A stretch of DNA of 64,000 nucleotides from a virus. Lineage: Duplodnaviria; Caudoviricetes. Of the stretch, positions 1,484-50,176 are shown one piece after another. The stretch is taken from the IMG/VR virus record IMGVR_UViG_3300027971_004105. One strand, 5' to 3'. Every line of letters begins with the position of its first letter. Positions within the stretch are counted from its first letter, which is position 1. A model generated the notes under the pieces. That model was not told where the DNA came from and ran no database searches. It saw only the letters and a program-made list of their open reading frames with translations. The translations under genes were made by a program, and so were the position numbers.

Positions 1484-1519
1484 TCAAGAATAATTCACAA
1501 CAAAATCACTGTTGATATA

Positions 1520-1549
1520 TAATACTGTGTGTAAATTCGCACAGTATTA
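1520..1549. promoter_or_regulatory. Inverted repeat/hairpin immediately upstream of GT9 gene
   Basis: taatactgtg-tg-taaatt-cg-cacagtatta: perfect 10 bp arms, ends 5 nt before ATG 1555, overlaps a TATAAT at 1518-1523. Confidence 0.6.
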
Positions 1550-1554
1550 CATAT

Positions 1555-2499
1555 ATGAATAGATCCAAAGCATTTTTTTTAAACGGAGGTATTGGCCGAA
1601 TTTTGTGTGCTATTCCTGCACTGGAAAAATACGCAGAAGAATCGGGCGATAAAGATTTTTTAGTCATTTGCGAAGGAGCTGTGGACATACTCAAAGGTCA
1701 TCCCATACTGGATCAAAAAACCTACGATATTTTTCATAAAAATTTATTTCATTCTAAATTACAATCCAGAGAAATAGTAAGTTTGGAGCCTTATAGAGTT
1801 TGGGAATATTACAATCAAAAATGCAATCTATCTCAGGCTTTTGATATATTGATCAACGCCAAAGGAGTGAGGTCATTGCCCAAACCCACCATCCATCTCA
1901 GCAAGGAAGAAACTGCTCAAGGACAAAAATTGATGGAAGAAATCAAAGCAAAAATTAAAAAAGATAAAGCCATTGTGTTTCAACCATTTGGCAGAGGCGT
2001 AGAGCACATGGATAAAACTCTTTTGGATAAAACTGGACGCAGTTTTGAATACAAAGATGTTAAGAACTTGATACGAAAACTACAAAAAGAAAACTTTGCA
2101 GTGATACTGATGTCAGAATTTGGCATGGATCTTAAGGATCAAAAATACACAGATGATGTGGCCATGCCCGAAGGATTGAATCTAAGAGTGTGGACAGCAC
2201 TGATCAAACAAGCTGATCATTTCTTAGGCTGTGACAGTGTGGGTCAGCACTTGGCCTACATAGTAGGCACCACTTCCACTGTGGTATTGGGACCTACCTA
2301 TCCCGTCAATACCACTTATCCCGATTGTGACTATTTTAACATAATGGATATGGGAGAAATAGATAGGGAGTATGATCCAATTAGAATCACCATGGACGAA
2401 AGAATTGCTAGAAAAAATGAAATATTGATGTCTATGAACGAAGAGATTGAAGACTATGTGATCAACGGAGTAATGAGAAGAAATCAAGATGACAAGTAA
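1555..2499 (+). CDS. GT9-like (ADP-heptose:LPS heptosyltransferase-like) glycosyltransferase 1
   Basis: N-terminal GGIGRILCAIPAL and C-terminal HFLGCDSVGQHLA...STVVLGPT match GT9 GIGD..P and FIGNDSG.MHLA...LFGPT patterns. Confidence 0.7.
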   Translation: MNRSKAFFLNGGIGRILCAIPALEKYAEESGDKDFLVICEGAVDILKGHPILDQKTYDIFHKNLFHSKLQSREIVSLEPYRVWEYYNQKCNLSQAFDILINAKGVRSLPKPTIHLSKEETAQGQKLMEEIKAKIKKDKAIVFQPFGRGVEHMDKTLLDKTGRSFEYKDVKNLIRKLQKENFAVILMSEFGMDLKDQKYTDDVAMPEGLNLRVWTALIKQADHFLGCDSVGQHLAYIVGTTSTVVLGPTYPVNTTYPDCDYFNIMDMGEIDREYDPIRITMDERIARKNEILMSMNEEIEDYVINGVMRRNQDDK

Positions 2500-4303
2500 G
2501 CCTTCAGGTTATATTGCTGCCATTGCTAGAGGACACAATGCCGGAGTGTGTTTGTTAAAAGATGGCAACGTTGTTTTTTCCATAGAAGAAGAAAGATTAA
2601 GTAGACAAAAATATGATGGCGGACCTTATGCCAGCATGATGGAAATATTAAAATACACTGACAAAATAGATTATTTGATTGTGGCTCACACACAAAAACT
2701 CAAAGACACAGCAGGCAAAGTGGATTTTACAGGTGATGACGTGTACACTGGACTGGCACGTAAAATGGGATTGATTGATAGAACAGCTGATCCTCACAAC
2801 CATCCTCAAGTGATTGATCTCAGTCACATACATCACAAATTACATGCTGCATGTGCTTTTTACAGATCTGGTTGGGAAAGTGCTGTGTCGGTGATTGTAG
2901 ATGGTGCTGGAACATTCATTGGCATTAATAATAATATTCAAGGACAGACCACTGTTTGGGAAGTGGAATCAATTATAAATTGTGCATATCCTTCAAACTT
3001 TCATTCATTGTACAAACATTATGCCACTCGTGATGCTATGATTGGTGCAATATTAAAAAATTTTCCTTCGGACATTACTGACGAAGCTGGTAAAACTCAC
3101 GAAGCAATATTCAGTGACAGAGCCGGCATAGTAAAAGTATACGAAGCTGTGACACAATATTGTGGATTCCAAGCAATTGAAGCAGGCAAAACCATGGGAT
3201 TATTTCCCTATGGCAAACCCAATGATAAAATTCCGCAATTATTTGAAACTGAAGGAAAATCACCTTTGTCCAATAGAAATTTAATTGTACCAACCTACCC
3301 TAGTGCAGCGTTAGTGAACGCTCTTATTTTTGATTATCTGGAAGATGAAATAGGAAAATCTCATGATGATGTAACATTATTACAAAATCGTAGAGATTTG
3401 GCTTATGCTTGCCAAACACAAACTCAAGAACAAGTTTTAAAATTAATTCGTAAAGCAGTGTCCATGAGCAACAATAAGAGAGTGGTGTTGTCAGGAGGAT
3501 ATGGATTAAATTGTGTGGCCAACTATTATTATTTAGAACATTTGAAAGAAGAAGGAATTGAACTGTATGTGGAACCAACTTCCAACGATGCTGGCACAGC
3601 AATGGGTGCAGCATTGATGTTCTATCATCAGATATTTGCTGACAAAACTCCAAAAGTGCATAACACATTATACTTGGGTCCTATAAGAGAATACACATTG
3701 GCAGACATTGAAAAAAGAGCCAGCATCAGTGAAAATAAAAATGTTAAAATAACAGATGCCACACACAAAGATATAGTAAAACTTTTAAAATCAAAAAATA
3801 TAGTGGCCATGTTCCAAGGTAGATCAGAAAACGGTCCTAGAGCATTGGGCAATAGATCCATATTGTTTGACCCAACATTCAAAGATGGCAAAGATTTTGT
3901 AAATCTAGTTAAAAAGAGAGAATACTTCCGTCCATTTGCTGGAACTATATTGCAAGATGATGTGCATGAATGGTTTGATTTGCGTGGCATGAAAGATTCT
4001 CCGTTTATGATGTATGCTGTGAATTGTCAACCAGGTGTTGAAGAAAAAATTCCTGCAATTATTCATGTGGATGGCACTTGTAGAATACAAACAGTTACTG
4101 AAGAACAAAATAAACATTATTATGATTTAATTAAAACATTCAAAGATGAAACAGGTATACCTATATTATTCAATACTTCATTTAATTTGGGTGGTGAACC
4201 TTTGGTTGAAACTTTGGATGATGCATTTAGAACTCTAGAAAATTCCAAAATTGAATATCTATACTTGCCCGAGCATAAAAAATTAATACACATGCCGAAT
4301 TAA
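2489..4303 (+). CDS. O-carbamoyltransferase, NodU/CmcH/TobZ family, full length
   Basis: EEERLSR.K, HHKLHA, DGAG, GKTMGL, GGYGLNCVAN, NDAGTAMG (Kae1-like domain) and GPRALGNRSI, KKRE.FRPFA, HVDGT.RIQTV, NTSFN (YrdC-like domain). Confidence 0.92.
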   Translation: MTSKPSGYIAAIARGHNAGVCLLKDGNVVFSIEEERLSRQKYDGGPYASMMEILKYTDKIDYLIVAHTQKLKDTAGKVDFTGDDVYTGLARKMGLIDRTADPHNHPQVIDLSHIHHKLHAACAFYRSGWESAVSVIVDGAGTFIGINNNIQGQTTVWEVESIINCAYPSNFHSLYKHYATRDAMIGAILKNFPSDITDEAGKTHEAIFSDRAGIVKVYEAVTQYCGFQAIEAGKTMGLFPYGKPNDKIPQLFETEGKSPLSNRNLIVPTYPSAALVNALIFDYLEDEIGKSHDDVTLLQNRRDLAYACQTQTQEQVLKLIRKAVSMSNNKRVVLSGGYGLNCVANYYYLEHLKEEGIELYVEPTSNDAGTAMGAALMFYHQIFADKTPKVHNTLYLGPIREYTLADIEKRASISENKNVKITDATHKDIVKLLKSKNIVAMFQGRSENGPRALGNRSILFDPTFKDGKDFVNLVKKREYFRPFAGTILQDDVHEWFDLRGMKDSPFMMYAVNCQPGVEEKIPAIIHVDGTCRIQTVTEEQNKHYYDLIKTFKDETGIPILFNTSFNLGGEPLVETLDDAFRTLENSKIEYLYLPEHKKLIHMPN

Positions 4304-4304
4304 T

Positions 4305-5255
4305 ATGAACAAAGCATTTTTTATTAACGGAGGAGCAGGTAGAACATTGTGTTCAGTGCCAGCACTAGAAAATTATGCCAACGATAATCCCAATGATGAT
4401 TTTATTATTGTGTGTGAAGGTGGCACTGATTTCTACAAAGGACATCCTAAATTACATTTTAGAGCGTATGATGTTTGGCACAAGAATCTATTCAATGAAT
4501 ACTTAAAAGATAGACAACTGATAACTCCTGAACCATACAGGGTTTGGGAATACTACAATCAAAAATGTAATATTGCACAAGCATATGACATAGAGATTAA
4601 TGGCAAAGGACTACGCACATTAGAAAAACCCAAAATTTATCTTTCCAAAGAAGAACTGATCATGGCAAGACAGATGATTAAAGAAATAAAAGAAACCACT
4701 AAAAAAGAAAAAATAGTAGTGTTTCAACCTTTTGGTAGAGTATCTAAAAAAGACAACGATAGTTTTATAGATGTGAGTGGTAGAAGTTTTGAATTGGAAA
4801 ACATTATCAATCTAATTAGACAGTTGGGCAAACAATATGCTGTGATGGTGATGTCAGAATTTCCCATAGATTTTAGTAAACATCAGATAAATTTTCCAGT
4901 GGCTGTGCCTCAGAATATACATATAAGAATTTGGAGTGCTGTGATAAAAATGTGTGATCATTTCTTAGGCTGTGACAGTTTGGGCCAACATCTTGCACAT
5001 GCTTTTGACAAAACAGCCACAGTGGTATTTGGTTCAACATTTCCCAATAATGTTTCTTATCCAGACAATAATAAATTTGATATCATTGACATGAACAAAG
5101 ACAGTAGAATTTACAGTCCTATACGCATAACCATGGATGAATATGCTGACAGAGCCAATGAAGATGCTATGAAAATGGACAAAGAAGTGGAAAATAGAAT
5201 TATGCAATCTGTCAACAGCATGATCAAACACGGCTACAAAAAGAATAAAAAATAA
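4305..5255 (+). CDS. GT9-like glycosyltransferase 2 (paralog of 1555-2499)
   Basis: Shares KAFF.NGG.GR.LC..PALE, EPYRVWEYYNQKCN, VFQPFGR, DHFLGCDS.GQHLA, IRITMDE with the first copy. Confidence 0.7.
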   Translation: MNKAFFINGGAGRTLCSVPALENYANDNPNDDFIIVCEGGTDFYKGHPKLHFRAYDVWHKNLFNEYLKDRQLITPEPYRVWEYYNQKCNIAQAYDIEINGKGLRTLEKPKIYLSKEELIMARQMIKEIKETTKKEKIVVFQPFGRVSKKDNDSFIDVSGRSFELENIINLIRQLGKQYAVMVMSEFPIDFSKHQINFPVAVPQNIHIRIWSAVIKMCDHFLGCDSLGQHLAHAFDKTATVVFGSTFPNNVSYPDNNKFDIIDMNKDSRIYSPIRITMDEYADRANEDAMKMDKEVENRIMQSVNSMIKHGYKKNKK

Positions 5256-5279
5256 AATTATTTTAAGGTAAATACACAC

Positions 5280-5696
5280 ATGTTCAATGTAAACAACTTG
5301 TTTGGCAAGGGTGTAAAGAATACTCTACTGTTAAAAAATGGTTTAAATTTTTCAGTGGGAGGTCCTTTTACCAGTGTGCAAACAGACACATTAATAGATA
5401 GATGGCAATTCACATCTGTATCAGCTGCTGAGTACACCATGATGGTGGACTATGATACCAACAACAAAGAAATTATAAGATGTTTGCTGGTGGGTGGACC
5501 AAACGCTGCCACAGTGACCATATATGGTCGTGGAAATCTTGGCAATGAATTAATCACCCTTACTGCCACTGTAAACGATTCATATGTGGAGTTACGAGCC
5601 ACTGCTGCACAAGGTGCTGACAGCACCATATACTATGGTTCTAAATGCATCTTCCAAGCCACCTATTTCGAAACTCTTAATCCTATCACACGTTAA
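5280..5696 (+). CDS. Hypothetical beta-rich virion protein
   Basis: Clean ORF, TAAATA 5 nt upstream of ATG, within the tail cluster. Confidence 0.7.
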   Translation: MFNVNNLFGKGVKNTLLLKNGLNFSVGGPFTSVQTDTLIDRWQFTSVSAAEYTMMVDYDTNNKEIIRCLLVGGPNAATVTIYGRGNLGNELITLTATVNDSYVELRATAAQGADSTIYYGSKCIFQATYFETLNPITR

Positions 5697-5740
5697 AATA
5701 GCAGCTGGTTTTAGATAAATACACTAAAAACTAGACATTT

Positions 5741-6451
5741 ATGCCAGTAGTTAATAATCCATTAAAATCGTTGTATGGCTTTCAAAGTCCATCATTCAGC
5801 GTGAATGCTGCAGGCAATCTTGTGGCCAACAACATTACCACCAACAATATCACAGCCAACAGTATATCAGTGATTGATATTGACTCCACAGGCACCAGCA
5901 CTCTTACAGATTTATTGGTCACAGGTTCTACAGAATTGCAAAACACTTTGGCAGTGGATGGTGATTCCATTTTTAATTCCACAGTATCCATCACAGATTC
6001 AACTGCTGCCACTTCACTGGTAGCGGCTGCTTTGATTGTGACCGGAGGAGTGGCCATACAAAGCAATTTGAGAGTCAACAGCGATATCAACATAGGTCAA
6101 AATTTATTAGCACAGAACAATGTGCAAGCCAACAATTCTTTGGTGTCCAACAGTATCACCACTGTGGATGATGGCAGCACTTTGAGCGATCTCACCATTG
6201 AACCTTTGGGTGATGTGATTTTTAGAACTGCCAGTCAAAGTGTGGAAGTGGGCAGAATAGATGCCACAGGATCCAACTTGCCTGTGCAAAACACCACCAT
6301 CAACAATACCACCATAGGATTAACTGTGGCCAGCACTGCTGCTTTTGTCAGCGGCACTGTGGTGAATACTCCCACCAATGCAGCCAATATCACCAGAAAA
6401 GACTACGTGGATCGTACTGCTGTGGCTTTTGCTGTGGCTTTGGGAGCATAG
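5741..6451 (+). CDS. Putative tail fibre-related structural protein
   Basis: Thr/Asn/Ser-rich beta-helix-like repeats and C-terminal ITRKDYVD motif typical of fibre proteins; TAAATA at 5716-5721. Confidence 0.65.
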   Translation: MPVVNNPLKSLYGFQSPSFSVNAAGNLVANNITTNNITANSISVIDIDSTGTSTLTDLLVTGSTELQNTLAVDGDSIFNSTVSITDSTAATSLVAAALIVTGGVAIQSNLRVNSDINIGQNLLAQNNVQANNSLVSNSITTVDDGSTLSDLTIEPLGDVIFRTASQSVEVGRIDATGSNLPVQNTTINNTTIGLTVASTAAFVSGTVVNTPTNAANITRKDYVDRTAVAFAVALGA

Positions 6452-6485
6452 GTAAATACAATGTCTAAACACAACTCTGTAAAAA

Positions 6486-9400
6486 ATGGCTAAAAAACAG
6501 TTAAAAAATTTTATATTTGAACCAGGTATTGGCAAGGATGATGGTCTATATCCCAATGCTGCCACACTGGTACTGGCCAACAAAGCATTTTTACAACAAC
6601 AGGTTGTAGCATACATCAACTACAACATCGCCAACAGCATTGCACCTTATGTGGGATATACCTACGCTTCACAAAAATGTATCAGAGACGTGGGGTATTT
6701 CATAGACGCAGTCACACACGATTTAAGATATGGTGGCAATGTTAAATGTCGTCAGGTGGCAGATTATTTTTGGATAGACGGAGAACCTCAGATCCGAGGT
6801 GATGTCACACCAGAGACCACTGGACAGGCCTATCTGCGTGATATTATCAATCAATTCATACTGACCAAAACACCAGTCACTCCCACCTACGGCAATACCA
6901 CACCTCAGGTATTCACTGCAGGCATCAGCACAGAGAGTGATGCTGCCACTGCCAACATAGTGTTGTGGAATATTTTCAGCACAGTGATCACCAACGGTCC
7001 CAGTGCAATGCCAGCCAAGGTACCAGGTGTGTCTTCCATCAGAGTGATTGGACAGATTGATCCCGCCAGCATATTATTGATTACTGATGTGGATTCAGGA
7101 AATATCTTATACAGTTTTGCTGATCCTGCCAATAGTATTTCTGTGACCTATAAACAAGGACGCAGCAGCGGCGACGGCAATTTATTAAGTGATTTGGATT
7201 GGCCCACTTGGTGGCAGACCAGTGATTCAATCACCACCATAGACTTGAGTGCTGATACCAGCACACTCACTGTGGATTCTAATATACAATTTTTTGTGGA
7301 AGAAGCTGCACAAACAATCAGACCTTGGGAATTCGGCACAGATGCCATTGAACGTATGCGTGTGGCAGCGCCTCAGGCCATGTTGGATGCTGACTTTGAA
7401 TATGGATTACAACCAACCAAATGGCAGGCTCTGGGCACTTTGAGAATGTATCCTTCCACATATGAAGTACCTGGCAGCGATCTGACTGTGTTGAGTTGTG
7501 TTACTGATGCATCAGTGAACACTGGATTTTTTGGTAGTTCATTGATCACTGTGACCACTTCAGGAGTGCATGGATTCACAGTGGGTCAACCCATTTCTGT
7601 GAAAGGATTAAACAGCACTGTGTCAGGATTTGCCAGAGCAGAAGGATCTTTTTTAGTGTACAGTGTGCCTAGTTCTGTGAGTTTCACTTACTATGCCAGT
7701 GCTAGAGTAGGCACCAGCAACGAACAAAGTTTGTTGACTTCATTCATACAGATACGTCAAGCACAATTTTTCACAGGTGCTTCCATAGGTCAGCCCAGTT
7801 TTTCAGTGTTCACCAATGGTACCACACTCAGCATAGTCACTGCATTATTGGCCACCACAGGAGCCACGTCATTTGTTTACATCGGATCAGCACCTACTGT
7901 GGGTTCACCCATAACAGGTCCTGCAGAAATTCCAGTGGGCACCAGTGTGTCAGGCACAGTGGGCGCTGCTTCTGTGACCACCAATGTGTTATTGAACACT
8001 CTGGTCACTGACACTCAAATTAGTTTGACCAATCTCACTGGCATACAAACCAGCATGGCTTTGGACGTGGGCGGCACAGCATCCACCATCAACACCATAG
8101 TGGGCAGTGCATTATCATTGAGCAATCAATTGGGCGTGGCATACAAAGGTAGAGATGGTGTCAACAATGCTGTGACTGGCACTCTCACTGCTCCAGTAGG
8201 AGTAGGTGCACAATTTAATGTGACTCGCAGTGCTGGAGTATACACTTTGGTTCAAACTCCAGGAGCATCACCCACACCATTCAACTATCAAAAAGGTGAC
8301 AGATTAAAAATATTAGGCACCAGTTTGGGTGGCGCTACACCAGCCAATGACGTTAATATTTTAATCACTGCCGCAGGCACTGGTGGTGACATAGACTCAT
8401 TCACATTCACAGGCACTTCCATCTTGGGCGGTGCCACTTACCTCAACATAGGACACACCGGTTACACCGGCAGCACAGGCAGTGGATTTCAAATCAATGT
8501 CACCAGAACAGGTGGCACAGGCACATATTCTATCAGCTCAGTAGCAGCAGGCACTGGTTATGTTGTGACTGAACAGGTCACATTTGCAGGCACTCTTTTT
8601 GGTGGCACATCACCAGCCAATGACATTGTGTTGGAAATAGCTTCTGTGACTGGCACAGGCGATGTATTAACTTTCACACCAGTGGGCTCACCAGTGGGGT
8701 CATCAGGAGATGTCACTTATTCAGGCACACCAGCTCCCAACGTGTCACACTTGGGCAATGGAGCAGAATTTAACATAACCAGAAGCAATGGAGCATATTC
8801 AGTCACACTGAACAATGCAGGCACATTGTATGAAGAAGGCAACACAGTTGCAGTATCGGGCACCACACTGAATGGTGCTACTCCAACCAACGATGCCACC
8901 ATTGAAATCACAGGAGTCACAGGAGGAGTCATAGACACAATCACCATCAGTGGAGTGGGTTATGCAGGTGATTCCATCACAGTGTATCCTACAGTGAGCA
9001 TCAGTGAACCCATCACTGGCAACATCGCTGCTGGCACAGCTCTAAACGTGGGAGCCATTGCCACTGTACAAGTGGATTTTCAAGCTCCACACGGATTGGT
9101 TCCAGGCACCACCATATTGAGTCAGGTCACTTCGCAACCTGCACCAGAATTAGCATCCACAGCTAGAACCATCACAGGCAGCGGCACATGGTCTGTGGCT
9201 GCTCTGGGTGGAACTTTTGTGGCAGTGAGATCCGGTGCCACAGCCACACAGAGATCCACCAACGGACAAACTTGGGCAGCAGGCGGAGCATTGGATTCAA
9301 CAGCTTCATGGATTTCCGTGGCAGCTGGCAGAGTGAGTGGCGTTGATTATTTTGTGGTTATAGCTTCTGGCAGCACTTCTGCTGCTTGGTCTGTGAACAG

Positions 9401-12400
9401 TGGACAGAGTTGGACTGCTGCTGCTCTACCCAGCGGCGCCAACTGGAGCAAAGTGGCCTATGGTGACGGTGTATTTGTGGCTGTGTCCACAGGTGGCACT
9501 GCTGCTGCCTACAGCACTGATGGTGGAGCCAATTGGTCAGCCAGCACACTGCCCAGCAGCGGCACATGGACCGGCGTAGCCTCAGGTTTGATAGGAACTT
9601 CCACATATTTTGTAGCAGTGGCTTCAGGCGGCACGGTGGCTGCATATTCACCAGACTATGGAGTCAACTGGATTGCCACAGGAGCACTGCCAGCCTCAGC
9701 CACATGGAGTGCTGTGAGTTACGGCAACAACAGGTTTGTGGCCATCAGCTCCGGCAGTACCAATGCAGCATTTTCCACCAATGGAACCACTTGGACACTG
9801 AGCACTCTGCCCAGCAGCACCACATGGAATGAAATAATTTACGGCGATGACGTATTTTTAATCACTGCCACAGGCACCACATCAGCTCTCACTTCATTCA
9901 CTGGTGAAACAGGATCATTCACTGCAAGAACTTTGGCCACTTCATCCACTTGGGATTCTTTGGCTTACACTTATTACACTGGTCAAGGATTTGGAAGATT
10001 TGTGCTCACTGATCAATCAACCACTGCATTGGAAATCAATCTCACTTCAGCCAATCACCAGTTGGGCACAGGACCACACGTGGTATCTTCAGTGCCCAGC
10101 CCAGCTACCATAAGATTTGTGGCCAGAACCACAGGCATCATCAATATCTCCGGCAGTTCTATCACAGGAGTGGTGTATGCCAGACCAGACAGTTTCTTTG
10201 TGCATAGACCATTTGATGGTGGAGTACAGTTGGGCACAGGTAACCCCAGCCATGGTGCACAGGCCATCAGACAGAGCAAGAAATATATCAGATATCAATC
10301 AGGCAAAGGCATCATGTACACCACTGGAGGATTATTTGCTCCCAGTTACAATTTGTCAGGAGCCACAGCATCTGGCACAGCAGTGAACAGTTTGATCACA
10401 TTCACAGCAGATGACACAGATCACGGAGTGCAGGCAGGCTGTGTGATAGAAACCATAGGATTTGTGAGTTTTGAATACAATGGAGAATTCACTGTGGAGA
10501 GTGTGATAGATGCACGCAGTTTCACTGCCAGATCAGCAGTGGTATTGAGCACCACCACAGCACTGTTGGGCACTGAATGCAAAATGCTTATCAAATATTG
10601 GCATGGTTCAACTGTGCGTATAGGTGCATTTGATGAACAGAACGGAATATTCTATCAGTATGATGGCGAAGAGATGGCAGTGGTGCGCAGAAGCAGCACC
10701 AATCAATTGACAGGTACCATTGCTGTGAACACAGACAGCAATCAAATCACTGGCACAGGCACAAGATTTCAAGATCAATTAAAAGTAGGAGATAAGATTG
10801 TAATCAGAGGCATGAGTCATTTGGTGACTCAATTGAATTCTCAAACAGCCATGACAGTGGCTCCAGACTGGCGAGGTGCCAACAGTATTGTGGGAGCCCG
10901 AGTGTGTATCACTGAAGAATTATATGTGCCACAGAGTCAATGGAATTTGGACAAATTGGATGGCACAGGACCCAGCGGATATAATCTACTACCATGGCGC
11001 ATGCAGATGTTGGGCATGCAGTATTCATGGTATGCAGCAGGATTCATTGAATGGATGCTGCGAGGAGCTGACGGAAAATTTGTGTTCTTACACAAGATAA
11101 GAAATTCCAATACCAACACCGAAGCTTACATGCGTACTGCCAACTTGCCTGTGAGATATGAAGTGGAAAATCGTTCAGCATTGAGTGAATTATACTCTGC
11201 AGTGAATTCTTCTCAAACCACCATAGAATTAGTTGATGCTCGTAGATTTCCTGACAATGGTGTAATTTACGTAGGCAATGAATTGATATCATACAATGGA
11301 AAATCAGGCAGATCTTTGACTGGATGTACCCGATCAGCTTCATTTGGTTCATTCACTTCTGGAATCAACAGAGTATACACAGGTGGCACAGCATCATCAT
11401 ATTCCGTGGGCACTGGAGTCACATTGGTCAGTTGCACAGCCACTCCCACTATCAGTCACTGGGGGTCAGCGTTGCTCACTGATGGTTTATTTGATGAAGA
11501 CCGAGGATACATTTTTAACTATGCTGCCACAGGATTGAGTGTGAGCACTGCCAAACAGACTGCCTTTATGATCAGATTGGCTCCATCTGTTTCCAATGCA
11601 TTGGTGGGAGATTTGGGTGAAAGAGATTTATTAAACAGAGCACAATTGTTATTGAATGAAGTGGCAGTGACCACTGACACAGGCTCAGGCACTGTGGTTA
11701 TAGAAGGAGTATTGAATCCAAGAAATTATCCTGCCAATCCATCCAACATCACTTGGACAGGTCTGGCCAGCTCTGCTGCAGGAGGTCAACCAAGTTTTGC
11801 GCAGATAGCACTGGGGGGTTCTATCAACTGGGGAGGTGTGCCACTGACCACCACCACTGCTACCATACAAGGAGCACTGACCACCACTGTGAATGCTAGA
11901 GGATTCTCCACTGTCACACAGAACTTGACAGCCATTGCCAACTCAGGATTTAGAACTCGTTCGTTTCAAACCACCTCCAATGATTTTTATATCACCAACA
12001 CAGCTTATGATGCATTAACCAGTACTCCTTTGAGAGTGGGTGACAGACTGTCAGAGGGTACTTTTGTCACTGCAGGACAGAGTATTTCCAATATTACTCG
12101 TGCATATTTGGGGAGTATATACACCAGAATTGAAATGAGTTCTGCTGCCAACGGCAACAGTACTATTGGTGTCAACGTGACCATCAGTGTGCAGAACAGT
12201 ATCTCAACCAACTATGCCAGCGCCTATGTGAATGGCAGAACAGATTTTTTAATCACTAACGCAGAAGCAACATCTTCCAACATCACAGTGGGTGATGTAT
12301 TGCTGGTCTCCACTTTTGTGATCAGCAGTCAGACAGTGGCCACCATCACCAGTTCATATGCCACGGTCAGCGGAGTAGCTTACACACGCATAGTGATGAG

Positions 12401-12926
12401 CAGTGCAGCCAATGCCACTCAGGCAGTGAACACCGCCACTGCTACCACAGTCACAGCTGCCGGCACAGGAGCAACTTACACAGGTAACTTCATATTCTTC
12501 ACACAGGCCACTTGGAACAACTCGGGCGCTTCCAATGGTACCAGAGTGGCCACTTCATTCACACAATTTCCAGCCAACACTTCTGTGAGTGCTGTGAGCA
12601 ATAGAAGATTGGGCAGCACCACTGTGATCAGAGCCACGTTCACACAGACACTGGCCACTTTGGTGTCAGCTGCAGGCACAGTGACCTTCCAGTTTGGCGA
12701 TCCACAGTTTGCACTGCCAGGTGAACAGGTGTTTTCATTCTTGTTGCAACCAGGAGCATTGGCTGCTTTGAGTTTGAAAGAATTAAAAGAGTTAACCACC
12801 ACTGCCATAGGTGGCAGAGGCACGTTCCCCAATGGTCCAGACGTGTTGGCCATCAATATCTACAAGATATCAGGCTCAGCAGTGAATGGATCTGTTATTT
12901 TGCGATGGGGTGAAGCTCAGGCGTAA
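6486..12926 (+). CDS. Very large virion structural / tail fibre protein (2146 aa)
   Basis: Long Thr/Ser/Gly-rich ORF with internal repeats and a propeller-like region; TAAATA at 6453-6458. Confidence 0.85.
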   Translation: MAKKQLKNFIFEPGIGKDDGLYPNAATLVLANKAFLQQQVVAYINYNIANSIAPYVGYTYASQKCIRDVGYFIDAVTHDLRYGGNVKCRQVADYFWIDGEPQIRGDVTPETTGQAYLRDIINQFILTKTPVTPTYGNTTPQVFTAGISTESDAATANIVLWNIFSTVITNGPSAMPAKVPGVSSIRVIGQIDPASILLITDVDSGNILYSFADPANSISVTYKQGRSSGDGNLLSDLDWPTWWQTSDSITTIDLSADTSTLTVDSNIQFFVEEAAQTIRPWEFGTDAIERMRVAAPQAMLDADFEYGLQPTKWQALGTLRMYPSTYEVPGSDLTVLSCVTDASVNTGFFGSSLITVTTSGVHGFTVGQPISVKGLNSTVSGFARAEGSFLVYSVPSSVSFTYYASARVGTSNEQSLLTSFIQIRQAQFFTGASIGQPSFSVFTNGTTLSIVTALLATTGATSFVYIGSAPTVGSPITGPAEIPVGTSVSGTVGAASVTTNVLLNTLVTDTQISLTNLTGIQTSMALDVGGTASTINTIVGSALSLSNQLGVAYKGRDGVNNAVTGTLTAPVGVGAQFNVTRSAGVYTLVQTPGASPTPFNYQKGDRLKILGTSLGGATPANDVNILITAAGTGGDIDSFTFTGTSILGGATYLNIGHTGYTGSTGSGFQINVTRTGGTGTYSISSVAAGTGYVVTEQVTFAGTLFGGTSPANDIVLEIASVTGTGDVLTFTPVGSPVGSSGDVTYSGTPAPNVSHLGNGAEFNITRSNGAYSVTLNNAGTLYEEGNTVAVSGTTLNGATPTNDATIEITGVTGGVIDTITISGVGYAGDSITVYPTVSISEPITGNIAAGTALNVGAIATVQVDFQAPHGLVPGTTILSQVTSQPAPELASTARTITGSGTWSVAALGGTFVAVRSGATATQRSTNGQTWAAGGALDSTASWISVAAGRVSGVDYFVVIASGSTSAAWSVNSGQSWTAAALPSGANWSKVAYGDGVFVAVSTGGTAAAYSTDGGANWSASTLPSSGTWTGVASGLIGTSTYFVAVASGGTVAAYSPDYGVNWIATGALPASATWSAVSYGNNRFVAISSGSTNAAFSTNGTTWTLSTLPSSTTWNEIIYGDDVFLITATGTTSALTSFTGETGSFTARTLATSSTWDSLAYTYYTGQGFGRFVLTDQSTTALEINLTSANHQLGTGPHVVSSVPSPATIRFVARTTGIINISGSSITGVVYARPDSFFVHRPFDGGVQLGTGNPSHGAQAIRQSKKYIRYQSGKGIMYTTGGLFAPSYNLSGATASGTAVNSLITFTADDTDHGVQAGCVIETIGFVSFEYNGEFTVESVIDARSFTARSAVVLSTTTALLGTECKMLIKYWHGSTVRIGAFDEQNGIFYQYDGEEMAVVRRSSTNQLTGTIAVNTDSNQITGTGTRFQDQLKVGDKIVIRGMSHLVTQLNSQTAMTVAPDWRGANSIVGARVCITEELYVPQSQWNLDKLDGTGPSGYNLLPWRMQMLGMQYSWYAAGFIEWMLRGADGKFVFLHKIRNSNTNTEAYMRTANLPVRYEVENRSALSELYSAVNSSQTTIELVDARRFPDNGVIYVGNELISYNGKSGRSLTGCTRSASFGSFTSGINRVYTGGTASSYSVGTGVTLVSCTATPTISHWGSALLTDGLFDEDRGYIFNYAATGLSVSTAKQTAFMIRLAPSVSNALVGDLGERDLLNRAQLLLNEVAVTTDTGSGTVVIEGVLNPRNYPANPSNITWTGLASSAAGGQPSFAQIALGGSINWGGVPLTTTTATIQGALTTTVNARGFSTVTQNLTAIANSGFRTRSFQTTSNDFYITNTAYDALTSTPLRVGDRLSEGTFVTAGQSISNITRAYLGSIYTRIEMSSAANGNSTIGVNVTISVQNSISTNYASAYVNGRTDFLITNAEATSSNITVGDVLLVSTFVISSQTVATITSSYATVSGVAYTRIVMSSAANATQAVNTATATTVTAAGTGATYTGNFIFFTQATWNNSGASNGTRVATSFTQFPANTSVSAVSNRRLGSTTVIRATFTQTLATLVSAAGTVTFQFGDPQFALPGEQVFSFLLQPGALAALSLKELKELTTTAIGGRGTFPNGPDVLAINIYKISGSAVNGSVILRWGEAQA
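8200..8960 (+). repeat. Three ~90-aa coding repeats with GGATPAND-like core
   Basis: Cores at 8328 (GGATPAND), 8601 (GGTSPAND), 8871 (NGATPTND); spacing 273 and 270 nt; outer boundaries approximate. Confidence 0.75.
9170..10000 (+). repeat. Seven ~40-46 aa W-containing repeats (BNR/beta-propeller-like)
   Basis: LPS..TW..VA.G...FVAV....T.AAYS.DG..W pattern recurs seven times; boundaries approximate. Confidence 0.7.
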
Positions 12927-13299
12927 CAGTTTTTTGACTGTCACCAGGCACTATTCTATAATTGTCTTCCACGCTGTCTGCAGTGGAAACTTCTGTGATT
13001 GAACTGTTGTCCAACACAGCTTCCAATTGATGAGGTTGTAGAGGAGGATTGTGCCAAGTTTGACCTTCGCTTAATTCCTTCTGATATATTTTAGCATCCT
13101 TGGTGTCTATCCAACGCACTAAAAATTTTCCAGAATTCACAAACCAAGTTTCCTCTTTGTGTTTGTGAAAATGCAGTGAACACTTGTTGCCTGCTTTGGT
13201 AAACACTAAAATTTTTCCACAGTAATTGTCATTGGTGGCCCATATTAATTCATAACCCCAACCTTTGTCTATTTTGCCTTCTTGTCTATTCACGGTCAT
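12895..13299 (-). CDS. Cupin-fold protein (sugar isomerase-like)
   Basis: KGWG.E, CSLHFH..KEETW and HQLEA cupin metal motifs; last gene of the heptose operon. Confidence 0.8.
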   Translation of the reverse strand: MTVNRQEGKIDKGWGYELIWATNDNYCGKILVFTKAGNKCSLHFHKHKEETWFVNSGKFLVRWIDTKDAKIYQKELSEGQTWHNPPLQPHQLEAVLDNSSITEVSTADSVEDNYRIVPGDSQKTVTPELHPIAK

Positions 13300-14113
13300 T
13301 GCGAATATATTCCTCTATGGTTTTGTATTGGATGTTCACATGAGTATTTAAAAGAGTTGTGTCAGCACAGGTATAAGTTTGATACTGTGCTTTTAATTGT
13401 GTTGGCATGGGCACTAATTCTATACGAGCATTGTATTTTTTGGCAATTATTTCTGCTACTTCAGCAAAACTTGTGGGTGTTCCTGTGCCCACATTAAAAA
13501 TACCACTCACATCTTTGGTCAACATTTGTTCATGCACATCACAAACATCATCCACGCACACAAAATCTCTCAGATATTTTTCACTATTTTCAAAAAGTTT
13601 AATTACTCCTGCTTGTTGAGCTTGTTGAATAAATTTTGAAATGGGCGATGCTTGGTTGCCTTTGTGTTCTTCATGTGCTCCATACACATTAAAATATCTA
13701 AATCCTTGCACTGATATGTTGTATTCACTGTAAGGAACAGATTTAATCATTCTATCAAACAAAAATTTACTCCAAGCATAAGCACTCAATGGAGACATGG
13801 CAGCATCTTCTTTGAAATTTTTTGTTAGACCATACACACTGGCTGAGCTGGCGTATTGAAAATTAATACCCATCATATCACACAGGTACAATAATTTACA
13901 ACTGAAATCAAAATTTTGAATCATTATTTTTTCCACATCTGTTTCTGTGGTGCTGCTGATAGCACCCAAGTGTATCACTTGATCGTGTTTGGTTACATCT
14001 GGCATCACATCAGGAATATAATCATATCCTTCCACTGTGTGTCCTTTGTTCACAAGATGTTTGAATAGATTTTGACCGATAAATCCTTTGTGTCCTGTGA
14101 TTAATATTCTCAT
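13286..14113 (-). CDS. hldD: ADP-L-glycero-D-manno-heptose 6-epimerase
   Basis: TGHKGFIG, HLGAISSTTE, YASSASVYG, YAWSK (YxxxK), FRYFNVYG, RDFVCVDDV; adjacent to hldE. Confidence 0.88.
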   Translation of the reverse strand: MRILITGHKGFIGQNLFKHLVNKGHTVEGYDYIPDVMPDVTKHDQVIHLGAISSTTETDVEKIMIQNFDFSCKLLYLCDMMGINFQYASSASVYGLTKNFKEDAAMSPLSAYAWSKFLFDRMIKSVPYSEYNISVQGFRYFNVYGAHEEHKGNQASPISKFIQQAQQAGVIKLFENSEKYLRDFVCVDDVCDVHEQMLTKDVSGIFNVGTGTPTSFAEVAEIIAKKYNARIELVPMPTQLKAQYQTYTCADTTLLNTHVNIQYKTIEEYIRNDRE

Positions 14114-15360
14114 GATTGTAATCTATCTATAATTTTTGTGGTGGAAAATCCTTCCACGGTGGGAAATATAATCACTCGTGCCAACTCATTGCCTACTGTG
14201 GTGGACACTGTGTAATCTCCACCTTTGACAATAATGTCTGGTTTAATTTCTTCTATGATTCTTTGTGGAGTATCTTCTGTGAATAGCACTACTTCGTCCA
14301 CCCAAGGCAACATTTCCAATTGACGTTTTCTTGTGGCATAATCATTCACTGGTCTGCCTTCACCTTTTAATCTACGCACACTGGCATCATCGTTGATGCC
14401 TACTATTAACTTTTTACCTTGATTCCTAGCAAACTTTAATAATTCCAAATGTCCTGTGTGTAATATATCAAACACTCCATTGGTCCATACTGTGCCTTTG
14501 TTCAAATCTTCTTTGGTGACAGGCACAACACCAAACTTTTCCACATTTCTTGCTGCAGCATAGCATGCCAATTCACAAGCACGTGGCACAGTCATGCCTT
14601 GTTTGATACCATATGCTATCACGGCCAACACAGTATCACCTGCTCCGGTGACATCTGCCACTTCTCTCACGGGTTCTTTCACATGTGAGTACGATCCTTC
14701 TTTGGAAATGATATGAATACCTTTAGCTCCATCAGTGATTATAAGCCATGTCCAACTGTGTGTTTGAGCAAATTTCACAGCTGAATCCACATCAAAAGTG
14801 CCATTCCATGATTCATATTCTTTCATGTTGGGCTTAACTAAAAATGCTCCATCATAATAATCAGCAGATTGTTTGGGATCTACCAACACCCATTGAGTTT
14901 TTTCTAAAATGTTTTTTACTGTGTGAGATTTAATAACTCCTTTGGCATAATCACTGATTAATACCATACTTTTTTCTGTGAGAGAAAATAACAGTTGAGA
15001 TAAACAACTATCTTTGATGTATTGTTTTTCTCTATCCCAACGCAGTATGTGTTGCCCTCTTTGTTCAACCAATCTTATTTTTGTTGTGGTAATAGGAGCA
15101 TCTTCTGCTATGGATAAAAATACATTGCTGTTTTTTAATAAGTTTACTAAACTGTAACCGTCTGTGTCTTTGCCCACTGCTCCATACAATTGTACATCAT
15201 TGTGAATGGCAGCCATATTCACTGCTAAATTAGCAGCACCACCTGGAGAAACTTTTTGATTTTGTTCTAATAAAATAGGAATGGGTGCTTCAGGTGACAT
15301 GCGATCAGCAGTGCCCACGATCCAACGATCCAGCATGATATCACCAAGTATTTTGATCAT
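14110..15360 (-). CDS. hldE: Bifunctional heptose-7-phosphate kinase / heptose-1-phosphate adenylyltransferase
   Basis: RMSPEAPIP, GGAANLA, DVTGAGDTV (PfkB kinase) plus TNGVFDILHTGHLE, KGEGRPVN, VKGGDY, STTKII (nucleotidyltransferase). Confidence 0.92.
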   Translation of the reverse strand: MIKILGDIMLDRWIVGTADRMSPEAPIPILLEQNQKVSPGGAANLAVNMAAIHNDVQLYGAVGKDTDGYSLVNLLKNSNVFLSIAEDAPITTTKIRLVEQRGQHILRWDREKQYIKDSCLSQLLFSLTEKSMVLISDYAKGVIKSHTVKNILEKTQWVLVDPKQSADYYDGAFLVKPNMKEYESWNGTFDVDSAVKFAQTHSWTWLIITDGAKGIHIISKEGSYSHVKEPVREVADVTGAGDTVLAVIAYGIKQGMTVPRACELACYAAARNVEKFGVVPVTKEDLNKGTVWTNGVFDILHTGHLELLKFARNQGKKLIVGINDDASVRRLKGEGRPVNDYATRKRQLEMLPWVDEVVLFTEDTPQRIIEEIKPDIIVKGGDYTVSTTVGNELARVIIFPTVEGFSTTKIIDRLQS

Positions 15361-15794
15361 TATAGAAATTTTAACATCTTAAAAACTGTTTCCAGTTTTA
15401 TTTGATTATTTTTGTTTTGTAATGTATTTCTCAATCCTTGATGTAAAGGTTTGGGCCATTTGCCAAATATTACCCAAGCGTAGCCATCGTGTTCTTCATT
15501 TAATTTAGGGATAAACTCATTTTTTACCACACACAGATAGGTATGATATAAAAAGTTTTCATCATTGCTCACAAACGTTTCTAAAGGTATAGTTTTGGTA
15601 ATATTTACAGAACCAATTTCTTCACTGATTTCTCTTTTGAGCGATTCCCAAGGTGTTTCGCTTGCAATATTCTTGCCGCCCACTAATCCCCACACGTTGG
15701 ATTGTTTGCTTTGAGTTCTGTGTAAAAACAAAAATCTTTTGGTGTCTAGATTATAGAACAAGGCTCCGCAGCCAATTATTTTCTTATTGGTCAT
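15360..15794 (-). CDS. Nudix hydrolase
   Basis: Exact Nudix box GKNIASE-TPWESLK-REISEEIG. Confidence 0.9.
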   Translation of the reverse strand: MTNKKIIGCGALFYNLDTKRFLFLHRTQSKQSNVWGLVGGKNIASETPWESLKREISEEIGSVNITKTIPLETFVSNDENFLYHTYLCVVKNEFIPKLNEEHDGYAWVIFGKWPKPLHQGLRNTLQNKNNQIKLETVFKMLKFL

Positions 15795-15807: not shown

Positions 15808-17268
15808 CTATAGACTTAGGTTCCAGGTTCCTTTGCGATATTCACCTTCAAAGCTCAATAACCATGCTGTGCCATCCCATTTGTACTGCACACCTGTGTT
15901 TAGATTGGTGATGTAGGTAAATTCAACTGCTGAATCCACAGTGTTAGCATTGGCACTGGCATCAAATAATATGTTCCATTGAGTGCCATTCCATTCTATG
16001 ATGTCATTGGATTGAGCCACAAAATCACTACTGTTGGAATTCTTCCATGCATCGGCTCCGTCCACATTACTGTTTGATCCTATGTCATTTAAAATTAATA
16101 ATCGTAATCCAGAAATTTTTGTTGCTGTGGGATTGAATGTGAGTGGATCTATGATGTAATCCACAGTGCCTCTGTTGGTTACTCCATTGATAATTGTATT
16201 GGTTGGAATAGTATCAGTGTCCCAATTCACTATCAATTGATTTTCATTCAAACTGTTGAGAGCAAACGTTCCTGAAATTGTGGAATCCATATCAGAACGT
16301 TCCAAAAGTATTCTACTGATGCCTGCTTGATAAATTCCTGGATATGCATCCAACACTTTTCTCCAATTGGTTACGCCCACAACTCCTTTGTCCACTATTT
16401 GAACTATGCTGTTCATTACCACAATATCCCAATCACTGATAGTGGTTGCTGTCACAGAATCAGCATCTGTTCTTACCACTTTGCTGGTATCTTGAGTGCC
16501 ATCAGCTGTGGTATTGATATCTGATCTAGCAGTGTCGGTGGGATCATCTGAATATGCTTTGAGTTCAGGCATGCTCATGCCCAAATCAATATTACCTGTT
16601 TGTTCGTTAAAAATACTGGTGATAATTTTTGTAATTACTCCTAATTTTTTTACTTTGGTTGGTGCACTGATATAGATTGGAGTGGTAAATTGCAGTGTGG
16701 CAATGTCTATTTCACTTTCAGTGCCTGTGGGAATTCCTCTGGAACTAAAAGTTATTCCATTAAGATCTAACACAGTTAAACTGGTCCAATCAATGTAATT
16801 GTCAGTGGTTTGAATTTCTAAACTGGGATTGAATAACATCAATATTTGTTCTAATATTTGTAATTTTTGATCTGTATTGGTTGACCAAATGTCCACACTC
16901 ACACCCAAGGTGTAAGGAGTAGGCATTAATCTTTCCACAGTAAAATTGGCTCCTTGAATATTCAAATACTCCTCGTTATTTTCATCAAATGCTCTTTCTC
17001 TCACATGTATTTTACTTACAAATGTAGCATCAGCTGTACGGGTACGATCCATTTCCAATGAAGTCACGTATACTGCCATTCTAGGAGCACTGGGAATTTT
17101 ATTTTCACTGTTGTCTCTAATGATATGTGCCACTTGTCTAGTGATATCGCCATACATCACTGGTATGGTCTTCAATTGACCTTTGCCATCTTTATAAGAA
17201 AAATTACTCATTAATCTCACAATCTGAGTAATATATCTGCGTATTTGTCCGTCGTAAAAAAATTCCAT
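15808..17268 (-). CDS. T4 gp15-like tail terminator / sheath stabiliser with C-terminal extension
   Basis: N-terminal FFYDGQIRRY, IPVMYGD, PRMA, MPTPY.L, QILEQIL..FNP typical of gp15 homologs; next to neck genes. Confidence 0.7.
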   Translation of the reverse strand: MEFFYDGQIRRYITQIVRLMSNFSYKDGKGQLKTIPVMYGDITRQVAHIIRDNSENKIPSAPRMAVYVTSLEMDRTRTADATFVSKIHVRERAFDENNEEYLNIQGANFTVERLMPTPYTLGVSVDIWSTNTDQKLQILEQILMLFNPSLEIQTTDNYIDWTSLTVLDLNGITFSSRGIPTGTESEIDIATLQFTTPIYISAPTKVKKLGVITKIITSIFNEQTGNIDLGMSMPELKAYSDDPTDTARSDINTTADGTQDTSKVVRTDADSVTATTISDWDIVVMNSIVQIVDKGVVGVTNWRKVLDAYPGIYQAGISRILLERSDMDSTISGTFALNSLNENQLIVNWDTDTIPTNTIINGVTNRGTVDYIIDPLTFNPTATKISGLRLLILNDIGSNSNVDGADAWKNSNSSDFVAQSNDIIEWNGTQWNILFDASANANTVDSAVEFTYITNLNTGVQYKWDGTAWLLSFEGEYRKGTWNLSL

Positions 17269-18428: not shown

Positions 18429-18433
18429 GTGTA

Positions 18434-18464
18434 TATTTATTCATGCTGTGTCTGGTGCTAAATA
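18434..18464. promoter_or_regulatory. Divergent pair of TAAATA late motifs (minus 18434-18439, plus 18459-18464)
   Basis: Both lie in the short intergenic gap between divergent neck genes. Confidence 0.6.
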
Positions 18465-39399: not shown

Positions 39400-39408
39400 G
39401 AAAAATAA

Positions 39409-41714: not shown

Positions 41715-41724
41715 GATTTAAATT

Positions 41725-42402: not shown

Positions 42403-42456
42403 ATGTGTACTTATTGCAATATCTTTTAAGACATTGATATTATGACATGTAAGTTG

Positions 42457-46081: not shown

Positions 46082-46095
46082 CTTGTTCCTTTATA

Positions 46096-48395: not shown

Positions 48396-48397
48396 TG

Positions 48398-49771: not shown

Positions 49772-49774
49772 GCC

Positions 49775-50125: not shown

Positions 50126-50153
50126 GATGCATTCACTCCTGTTGATTTGGTAT

Positions 50154-50171
50154 TAAATACTCACATATTTA
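50154..50171. promoter_or_regulatory. Divergent pair of TAAATA motifs (plus 50154-50159, minus 50166-50171)
   Basis: Lies between the divergent arms of the glycan island. Confidence 0.55.
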
Positions 50172-50176
50172 TCCAT

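Follow-up and report, generated by a model that had tools for sequence, protein, structure and literature searches.

A candidate virion-directed (carbamoyl)heptosylation module in the fibre region of a T4-like cyanophage

The 64-kb stretch of DNA analysed here (the window) comes from a T4-like phage contig, the virus record IMGVR_UViG_3300027971_004105, and all statements about it concern this stretch rather than the remainder of the genome. It combines, around its fibre genes, two paralogous transferases of GT9-type fold, an O-carbamoyltransferase and enzymes of ADP-heptose synthesis. The gene content, folds, motifs and synteny that we observe are best read as a system for (carbamoyl)heptosylation of the virion or its fibres, to which we give a probability of roughly 45%, the acceptor, the donor, the order of the steps and the role being what we infer from them. 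On this basis, the genes would form a fully cytoplasmic, phage-borne glycosylation module that comprises sugar supply, transfer and tailoring. HldE (kinase and adenylyltransferase) followed by HldD (6-epimerase) would supply the sugar, a cupin resembling phosphomannose isomerases (PMI) would convert sedoheptulose-7-P into heptose-7-P in the place of GmhA, and the 7-phosphatase step would be carried out in related phages by a small HAD enzyme and here by an enzyme encoded elsewhere in the genome or borrowed from the host. The two transferases, with an ADP-heptose-type donor site and a rebuilt acceptor site (Arg for Asp), would then transfer the sugar, which the NodU/TobZ-type carbamoyltransferase would modify. 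The most likely acceptor would be an adjacent fibre-module protein, namely a small protein of 236 amino acids (aa; p236), a 2146-aa protein, or both, and the outcome would be a virion bearing heptose or carbamoyl-heptose, with a putative role in receptor binding or in the stability or masking of the fibre.

The best protein matches of the window are found in Kyanoviridae (S-CAM1, S-SSM7, S-CAM3, and P-SSM2) and gp13, gp14, and gp15 are all present, which identifies the source, as far as its sequence tells, as a T4-like cyanomyovirus; a megablast search among isolate phages with the first 20 kb returned no match, which leaves the window without a close isolate at the DNA level. On the + strand, the transferase GT9a (314 aa; 1555–2499) is followed by the NodU/CmcH/TobZ-type O-carbamoyltransferase (604 aa; 2489–4303), which overlaps it by 11 nucleotides (nt), by the transferase GT9b (316 aa; 4305–5255), which starts 2 nt downstream of the carbamoyltransferase, and then by p138, a small beta-rich protein of no known family (138 aa; 5280–5696), p236 (5741–6451) and the 2146-aa virion structural or fibre protein (6486–12926). 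Convergent to this run, the – strand carries gp14 (17271–18428), gp15 (15808–17268; Pfam T4-gp15_tss), a Nudix hydrolase (144 aa; 15360–15794), HldE (416 aa; 14110–15360), HldD (275 aa; 13286–14113), and the cupin (134 aa; 12895–13299), gp14 and gp15 being neck genes at the head of the operon, an assignment that phrog_11591 also supports. Overlaps of 1 nt between Nudix and HldE, 4 nt between HldE and HldD, and 14 nt between HldD and the cupin tie this second run together. These coordinates agree with the layout given in an earlier account of the sequence (hereafter the original prediction), in which two GT9-like genes lie on one side of the fibre genes and overlapping hldE and hldD genes on the other, downstream of gp14 and gp15.

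By sequence alone, the label "GT9-like" is weakly founded, and it is a search with a modelled fold that confirms it. GT9a and GT9b are 51% identical paralogues that both match phrog_8954 (E 4.5e-136 for GT9a), and GT9a reaches only 17.5 bits against Pfam GT9 (PF01075; cutoff 22), GT9b giving no match; against NCBIfam TIGR02201, the score is 17.5 for a cutoff of 170. Searches of PDB sequences with a single transferase or with a profile of its close family returned noise, and GT9 enzymes were found only with a diverse profile and with the fold. The AlphaFold (AF2) model of GT9b, built on 24 homologues (pLDDT 84, pTM 0.86), is a two-lobed GT-B enzyme. Foldseek ranks 1–31 against PDB, with E-values down to 6e-12, are almost all GT9 enzymes or TibC, and ranks 1–18 against the Swiss-Prot part of the AlphaFold database are all heptosyltransferases. 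The top matches are the Veillonella GT9 enzyme 3tov, WaaC, WaaF, and TibC (E 6e-12 to 1e-7, TM 0.5–0.66), and other matches include Campylobacter and Haemophilus heptosyltransferases and, lower down, TibC, Aah, and BAHT. The family comprises 3402 homologues with conserved motifs, and a diverse alignment of 46 members (26–50% identity) was drawn from 438 representatives at 50% clustering. The resulting profile matches WaaF and WaaC at the D-S/T-G-x-x-H donor motif, which reads D224-S225-x-G-x-H229 in GT9b and whose Asp224, Ser225, and His229 are invariant in the 46 members; 21 of them match Pfam GT9 (E < 0.01). The transferases thus keep an ADP-heptose-type donor site, and from their co-location with HldE, HldD, and the rest of the cassette we infer that ADP-heptose is what they use.

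The acceptor side is of a different nature. An N-terminal loop, [D/N]-G-G-x-G-R, aligns with the S-M-G-D13 of WaaC in both hhalign and HMMER, and the position of the catalytic Asp13 of WaaC is held by an Arg (Arg13 in GT9b) in 43 of the 46 members, the alignment being sequence-based and of low hhalign probability; replacement of the catalytic-base Asp by Arg thus looks almost invariant in the family. The original prediction had also drawn on TibC and AAH, bacterial enzymes with a GT9-related GT-B core that, in the cytoplasm, O-glycosylate beta-structured adhesins rich in Ser/Thr with ADP-heptose as the donor. In TibC, the catalytic core begins at residue 98, the base is Asp110, and four cysteines (Cys339, 342, 358, and 370) form an iron finger needed for the dodecamer (PMC4358343). 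A likeness to these enzymes does not hold at this level: the GT9b model begins with the strand of residues 3–7 of the N lobe in a protein of 316 aa, leaving no N-terminal beta-barrel, the five cysteines of each copy are scattered (16/18, 37/39, 88/90, 217–258) and unconserved in the family, hence no four-Cys iron finger, and the equivalent of Asp110 is missing. The transferases are therefore neither ordinary LPS (lipopolysaccharide) heptosyltransferases nor BAHTs, and they constitute a separate, divergent clade. This clade is almost confined to phage or phage-like DNA, as a scan of one genome per species over 185,579 prokaryote species yielded only 7 loci, all on contigs of metagenome-assembled genomes (MAGs) of unrelated taxa and 53–66% identical to cyanophage proteins. 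The MAGs are labelled as Methanobacteriota, Chitinophagales, Neomarinimicrobiota, Flavobacteriales, and others, and the contigs in question (L096–L102) most likely come from phages and were wrongly binned.

Since LPS heptosyltransferases stand above TibC and Aah in the structural comparison, these data also bear on the main rival explanation, the published view that such genes remodel the host envelope. In that case, heptose or carbamoyl-heptose would be added during infection to the host LPS core or another envelope glycan, which could block superinfection or keep progeny from being lost on cell debris. Cell-surface alteration was indeed proposed for the "LPS" clusters of P-SSM2 (Sullivan et al. 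2005; PMC1079782), and a genome note of 2020 still lists the cassette genes as heptose-related LPS genes (PMC7378029). An export machinery encoded by the phage would be unnecessary to such remodelling, as LPS core heptosyltransferases work at the cytoplasmic face of the membrane. The core of Pseudomonas LPS is known to be decorated with 7-O-carbamoyl-heptose. Against this explanation, the acceptor-side catalytic Asp is replaced, and the clade, almost restricted to phages, is lodged in the fibre modules of lytic phages whose hosts differ widely. Besides, according to the passage of PMC4515613 that cites Snyder 2009, neither heptose nor the canonical acceptor Kdo (3-deoxy-D-manno-oct-2-ulosonic acid) occurs in the LPS of marine Synechococcus. 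As for membrane proteins, a hydropathy scan predicted none in the two sugar clusters of the window, that is, the heptose/transferase region and a second, larger sugar island at 35322–51019. This island encodes a UDP-sugar dehydrogenase, two SDR epimerases, a GFO/IDH/MocA oxidoreductase, a DegT aminotransferase, a hexapeptide acetyltransferase, at least four FkbM or other methyltransferases, a GT8-like protein and a second cupin. The lack of membrane proteins, the reported host LPS, the replaced Asp, and the phage-restricted clade together argue against an LPS-core acceptor, and we regard envelope remodelling as unlikely on the whole.

Acceptors of protein nature are, in turn, favoured by the TibC/AAH precedent, by a phage precedent, and by the composition of the neighbouring proteins. 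Freeman et al. are said to have found in 2023 that mycobacteriophage-encoded glycosyltransferases located near structural genes act cytoplasmically to decorate virion proteins, the glycans being seen by mass spectrometry. In the window, p236 and the 2146-aa protein contain about 24% Ser+Thr (24.6% and 23.8%) compared to 8–13% in the enzymes. The Thr/Ser richness that the original prediction noticed in the long fibre is thus real, but it is ordinary for fibre proteins, as other structural proteins of the window reach 18–19%. The 2146-aa protein matches phrog_5838 ("virion structural protein", E 1e-224) and its homologues are annotated as virion structural in S-CAM1, S-CAM3, S-PM2, and others. 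As for p236, its C-terminal 16 residues match the C-terminus of the S-CAM1 "tail fiber protein" SXBG_00215, and both genes hold the same position ahead of the giant protein. Searches with p138 gave no Pfam, PHROG, or isolate-phage match, and its atlas clusters are phage-only and unnamed. We also noted that residues ~600–1200 of the 2146-aa protein (8300–10100 in the window) contain three tandem repeats of ~90–100 aa (NDxxLxIxxxTGxGDxxxFT) followed by repeated S-x-D-G-x-x-W and LPSS-x-x-W motifs reminiscent of BNR/Asp-box propeller blades, and that GC is 0.50 in this segment versus ~0.37 in its flanks.

Regarding sugar supply, the enzymes that the original prediction had named look genuine and intact. 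In HldE, the PfkB kinase and CTP_transf_like domains both score above the Pfam cutoff and the motifs DVTGAGD and GVFDILHTGH are intact, while its 353 bits against the equivalog NF008454 (cutoff 521) and its 416 aa for a 475-position model mark a divergent, shortened protein; its best NCBIfam models are rfaE domains I and II and its best solved relative is the heptose 7-phosphate kinase 4e84. This fused protein is 36% identical to bacterial RfaE versus ~30% to the split versions of cyanophages, which suggests that one and the same function was independently gained or retained. HldD shares 39% identity with E. coli RfaD over its whole length (E 2e-57) and possesses YAWSK, the YxxxK motif of short-chain dehydrogenases/reductases (SDR); its best model, TIGR02197, gives 239.7 bits for a cutoff of 274.6, an N-terminal segment of ~25 aa being deleted. 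Likewise, both carbamoyltransferase domains score strongly, above threshold (Carbam_trans_N 86.7 bits and Carbam_trans_C 199.6 bits in Pfam), and the NodU model of NCBIfam is also matched. That the phage makes ADP-L,D-heptose, as originally predicted, is therefore borne out for the kinase, the adenylyltransferase, and the epimerase, but not for GmhA (an SIS isomerase) and GmhB (an HAD phosphatase), as no SIS or HAD match was found among the scanned open reading frames of the window and a tblastn of the relatives' HAD protein against it returned nothing.

The relatives and the cupin may hold the answer to these two missing steps. The gene annotated as "phosphoheptose isomerase" in S-CAM1, S-SSM7, and P-SSM2 (L001:18910–19233, L002:23705–24040, and L003:19030–19374; 107–114 aa) has no SIS domain and displays the HAD motifs DxDxT, (S/T)-R-G and G-K-P...D-D-K-G, so that the public annotation is probably wrong and this mini-HAD is likely a substitute for GmhB and not an isomerase. 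As to the cupin, annotated as "cysteine dioxygenase" in relatives, it is the sole member of the cassette without an assigned step, and it accompanies the kinase, adenylyltransferase, and epimerase everywhere, namely in S-CAM1, S-SSM7, P-SSM2, P-TIM68, and the unrelated contig L091, as well as in S-T4 as a short annotated open reading frame. It is 70–92% identical across more than 120 clusters and its metal site (H43-x-H45, E50, H90) is invariant or nearly so. Besides Cupin_2, it weakly matches MannoseP_isomer and GMP_PMI, the type II PMI domain, and the PMI domains of AlgA, XanB, and ManC stand highest (20–24% identity) among otherwise generic cupin fold matches. PMI enzymes convert a ketose phosphate into a manno-aldose phosphate, which is the chemistry that GmhA performs on sedoheptulose-7-P; it is thus reasonable to see in the cupin a candidate sedoheptulose-7-P isomerase that replaces GmhA. 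A further candidate, the Nudix hydrolase (Pfam NUDIX 52.6 bits, intact Nudix box), was considered as a stand-in for GmhB and rejected: related loci have it after gp15 even with no hld genes in the vicinity, and NTP pyrophosphatases are the families closest to it. It probably accompanies gp15 as a neighbour peculiar to the lineage and takes no part in the pathway.

From a comparative perspective, two linkages recur, that of the transferase with heptose supply and that of the transferase with tail or fibre genes. Window-gene homologues were mapped onto 80 IMG/VR loci carrying a close transferase homologue. In these cyanophage loci, the carbamoyltransferase directly follows the transferase in 79 cases, a p138 homologue lies beside the transferase–carbamoyltransferase pair or the fibre in 72, and a homologue of the 2146-aa protein is present in 74; where the p138–fibre unit is inverted, it still abuts the pair. 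The link to fibre genes that the original prediction relied upon is thereby recovered in relatives, although these loci share ancestry and therefore count as roughly one observation. More distant homologues (24–31% identity) extend it to unrelated phages. In Vibrio phage K479 and many of its relatives, the homologue is flanked by a 1952-aa protein that has several matches to tail-fibre PHROGs and by a 1643-aa tail protein; in Aeromonas phage HJ05, a fibre-like gene lies on one side of it and, two genes downstream, the tail sheath gene on the other. On a metagenomic phage contig (L089:5270–6946), it forms a natural GT8–GT9-like fusion of 558 aa directly after three Collar-domain fibre genes; in another T4-like phage it lies just upstream of gp13–gp14–gp15, and on two further contigs its neighbours are Collar or Mtd_N genes, or a fibre PHROG match stands one gene away. 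Two other distant contexts were uninformative. Concerning the first linkage, the heptose cassette adjoins the transferase or lies close to it in S-CAM1, S-SSM7, P-SSM2, and window-like loci, and the unrelated phage contig L091 (2173–6547) carries in a row a sulfotransferase, the GT9-like gene, a PfkB kinase, a nucleotidyltransferase, the cupin, a 102-aa protein and the epimerase, the sulfotransferase occupying the place that the carbamoyltransferase has in cyanophages. On L091, a ClpP gene adjoins, and the database protein is recovered from the transferase gene only by reading TAG as Gln.

A heptose cassette is also found in S-T4 and P-TIM68, far from the fibres and without the transferase described here, in an hli-rich auxiliary region where its neighbours are other glycosyltransferases and a membrane protein. 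Heptose hence has at least one other use in cyanophages, and this context is a point in favour of envelope remodelling.

The original prediction left out of its reasoning both the carbamoyltransferase between the two transferase genes and the lack of GmhA and GmhB. The former calls for a second rival explanation, given that enzymes of the NodU/TobZ/CmcH type typically carbamoylate the sugars of natural products or Nod factors. Carbamoyl-heptose might accordingly be placed on a phage-made metabolite, for instance an aminoglycoside-like or nucleoside-like one, an idea to which the match to the NodU model, the unusual acceptor that an Arg at the base position would suit, and the interleaving of the S-SSM7 cassette with a halogenase and 2-oxoglutarate (2OG)-Fe(II) oxygenases all lend themselves, together with the "antibiotic synthesis genes" described in a cyanomyovirus in 2025 (PMC12801897). 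However, the transferase operon encodes no scaffold-building enzymes, the minimal conserved unit is the transferase–carbamoyltransferase pair beside fibre genes, and the Vibrio and Aeromonas homologues stand alone between tail genes, with no biosynthetic neighbours, all of which makes the tailoring of a small molecule quite improbable. It can be mentioned that another carbamoyltransferase gene of the window (59411–60397), which lies between a Toprim/primase-like gene and the DnaB-type helicase, encodes a truncated protein of 328 aa limited to the N-terminal domain, and that S-SSM7 likewise has extra "Nol-like" copies.

DNA is another acceptor to consider, for T4-like phages do use GT-B enzymes on DNA: T4 glucosylates hydroxymethylcytosine and RB69-type phages arabinosylate. 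A heptose could by analogy be attached to a hydroxylated base of the phage DNA, and a similar sugar-activation cassette, made of a kinase, an HAD phosphatase and a nucleotidyltransferase, is documented for arabinosylation (PMC13326640). Nevertheless, the surroundings of the cassette contain no hydroxymethylase or other base-hydroxylating gene, GT9 enzymes and not DNA glucosyltransferases are the closest in fold, and the placement in fibre modules is consistent across lineages; we therefore grant DNA hypermodification a very slim chance.

The timing of expression, which the original prediction placed late in infection, gives a mixed picture. A recurrent motif, (A/G)TAAATA(C/T), which resembles the T4-type late box, lies 15–45 nt upstream of gp14 (ATAAATATA at 18432–18440, – strand), p138 (GTAAATACA at 5268–5276), p236 (ATAAATACA at 5715–5723), the 2146-aa protein (GTAAATACA at 6452–6460), and p217 (ATAAATACA at 797–805), and is also found ahead of the + strand genes starting at 20296 and 23541. 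The weight of this motif comes solely from its position upstream of structural genes, as neither the looser RTAAATAYW (12 occurrences window-wide vs. 8.7, not significant) nor the exact T4 late box TATAAATA (2 in the window vs. 3.6 expected) is enriched. The gene p217 (830–1483, + strand; phrog_9740) is a conserved upstream neighbour of the transferases and, by tblastn, a weak homologue of S-CAM1 SXBG_00223, and it co-occurs with p255 in 20 of the 80 related loci. No promoter-like element was seen for the hld genes themselves, and since they follow gp14–gp15 behind its late-type motif, late co-transcription is the simplest reading. The TAATTA motif to which attention had been drawn does lie 5 nt before the Nudix ATG, in the 13-nt gap after the gp15 stop, but it differs from the recurrent late-type motif and shows no sign of function, and we rejected it as a promoter.

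Late expression thus fits the hld genes, but GT9a of the window could be of either class, being preceded at 31 nt by a sigma70-like promoter, TTCACA-18-TATAAT (1494–1523, + strand). This element, a consensus match only (11/12), is among the best matches in the region, and the early-type dNMP kinase gene has a similar one; as an early-type signal, it sits well with envelope remodelling. An ACTGTG/CACAGT hairpin with a 10-nt loop (1524–1550) lies between its –10 box and the start of GT9a and may serve as a leader structure or as a weak terminator of the late transcript arriving from upstream. In the distinct regions upstream of relatives' transferases, TAA[A/G]TA occurs within 100 nt in 40 of 54 versus 6.7% of random windows, whereas a loose sigma70-like pattern occurs in 15 of 54 versus 11% of random windows; in S-CAM1, a terminator and then CATAAATA precede the transferase gene. 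Judged from these motifs, the transferase is probably of the late class in most relatives, which is late for a surface remodelling to be of help to a lytic phage. The supplement of PMC7238727 lists orthologue groups and gives no expression class for those of the cassette.

Parts of both transferases, the two junctions with the carbamoyltransferase, p236, the 2146-aa protein, and the cupin are covered by assembled contigs of lake-water metatranscriptomes; such contigs tell that a sequence occurs in RNA libraries but say nothing of strand, level, or timing, and bins without coverage carry no information. For 1400–11399, the only RNA runs with near-identical sequence are lake-water metatranscriptomes, on account of which this phage lineage is probably a freshwater one, its cultured relatives being marine. 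The coverage also speaks to the last rival explanation, according to which these genes would be non-functional cargo, either stuffer DNA or decaying host-derived genes. Whether the LPS clusters of cyanophages function at all was considered unknown by Sullivan et al. (2010; PMC3037559), who raised the stuffer possibility, and the pathway in the window is incomplete. Yet, several cassette genes are covered in RNA libraries, the catalytic motifs are intact, the operon is tightly packed with overlaps, the cupin is strongly conserved over its more than 120 clusters, and the 3402 transferase homologues keep their motifs, so that we find the cargo explanation hardly credible.

Several considerations weigh against the glycosylation of the virion itself. 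Placing the acceptor on a virion protein amounts to guilt by association, and accessory genes that change the host surface are known to cluster in fibre modules as well. The window has neither GmhA nor GmhB, and the fold search does not discriminate an isomerase role for the cupin from other cupin chemistries, as oxalate decarboxylase, quercetinase, and CapF are also matched. With an Arg where the catalytic base is expected, the acceptor may be something other than a protein, or the chemistry may differ, and no single fibre family tracks the transferase, which is present in P-SSM2 and S-SSM7 where a homologue of the 2146-aa protein was not detected. T4-like gene order is conserved by descent, which leaves only ~6 distant contexts as independent next to the 80 loci. 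The early-type element of GT9a and the cassettes of S-T4 and P-TIM68 belong to the same side. The original claim that the phage glycosylates its own fibre rather than host LPS is, in sum, partly supported, by the intact enzymes, the fold, the donor motif, and the fibre linkage, and is still the best reading we have; the lack of TibC likeness, the incomplete pathway in the window, and the mixed picture of timing call for its correction.

A broader proposition can be formulated more tentatively, and we consider it somewhat doubtful: a phage-restricted offshoot of GT9, with Arg for Asp, would O-heptosylate tail or fibre proteins in many unrelated lineages (T4-like cyanophages, other T4-likes, Vibrio and Aeromonas myoviruses, and phages with Collar-domain fibres). 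A five-step pathway, with the cupin for GmhA and the mini-HAD for GmhB, would be brought by the phage where the host lacks ADP-heptose, the sugar would be carbamoylated or sulfated, and the cyanophage "LPS genes" would be genes of virion decoration.

These genes have been catalogued since 2005 and never explained, and our literature search found no paper proposing heptosylation of phage fibres; what would be new here is the combination of protein heptosylation with virion glycosylation. If true, some of the most abundant viruses of oceans and lakes would have glycosylated receptor-binding organelles, with consequences for host range, adsorption, particle stability, grazing, or aggregation. Protein heptosylation, so far restricted to bacterial adhesins, would be extended to viruses, a phage-specific glycosyltransferase clade with altered catalytic residues would be defined, and a textbook pathway would comprise non-orthologous replacements (a cupin for GmhA and a mini-HAD for GmhB). 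Cultured isolates with the cassette exist (S-CAM1, S-CAM3, S-SSM7, and P-SSM2), which makes the idea directly testable. Outside these subjects, the window carries at 62819–63739 (– strand) a porphobilinogen deaminase gene (hemC), an auxiliary gene of the tetrapyrrole pathway.

With regard to known systems, the phage transferases share with WaaC and WaaF the GT-B fold, of which these enzymes are the best structural matches, an alignable D-S/T-G-x-x-H donor motif in the C lobe, and a genomic association with hldE and hldD comparable to the rfaD–waaF–waaC operon of E. coli. They differ from them by an identity of 11–14%, by scores under the Pfam and NCBIfam cutoffs, by a G-R in the place of the G-D motif, by an almost phage-only distribution, and by the likely hosts, whose LPS is reported to lack the Kdo acceptor. 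TibC and AAH offer a close functional analogy to fibre decoration, and TibC is among the fold matches, but the phage proteins, at 314–316 aa, start straight with the N lobe, and the fold searches place TibC after the LPS enzymes. The RB69-type arabinosylation of T4-like phages follows a similar logic of kinase, HAD phosphatase, nucleotidyltransferase, and glycosyltransferase (PMC13326640), with another sugar, other enzymes, a hydroxylated base as acceptor, and genes located outside fibre modules. As regards the virion glycosylation of mycobacteriophages, it involves other glycosyltransferase families, other sugars, and another phage group with other hosts, the system described here being known from its genes alone. 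Finally, the closest counterparts are the cyanophage "LPS gene clusters" of P-SSM2, S-SSM7, and S-SM2 (T4-GC 302–308), which contain orthologues of the transferase, carbamoyltransferase, adenylyltransferase, kinase, "isomerase", cupin, and epimerase. Unlike them, the window has a fused HldE closer to RfaE, a duplicated transferase, no HAD gene, and hld genes inverted behind gp14–gp15; and where the literature treats these clusters as LPS-related or of unknown function, we propose that they may be directed to the virion.

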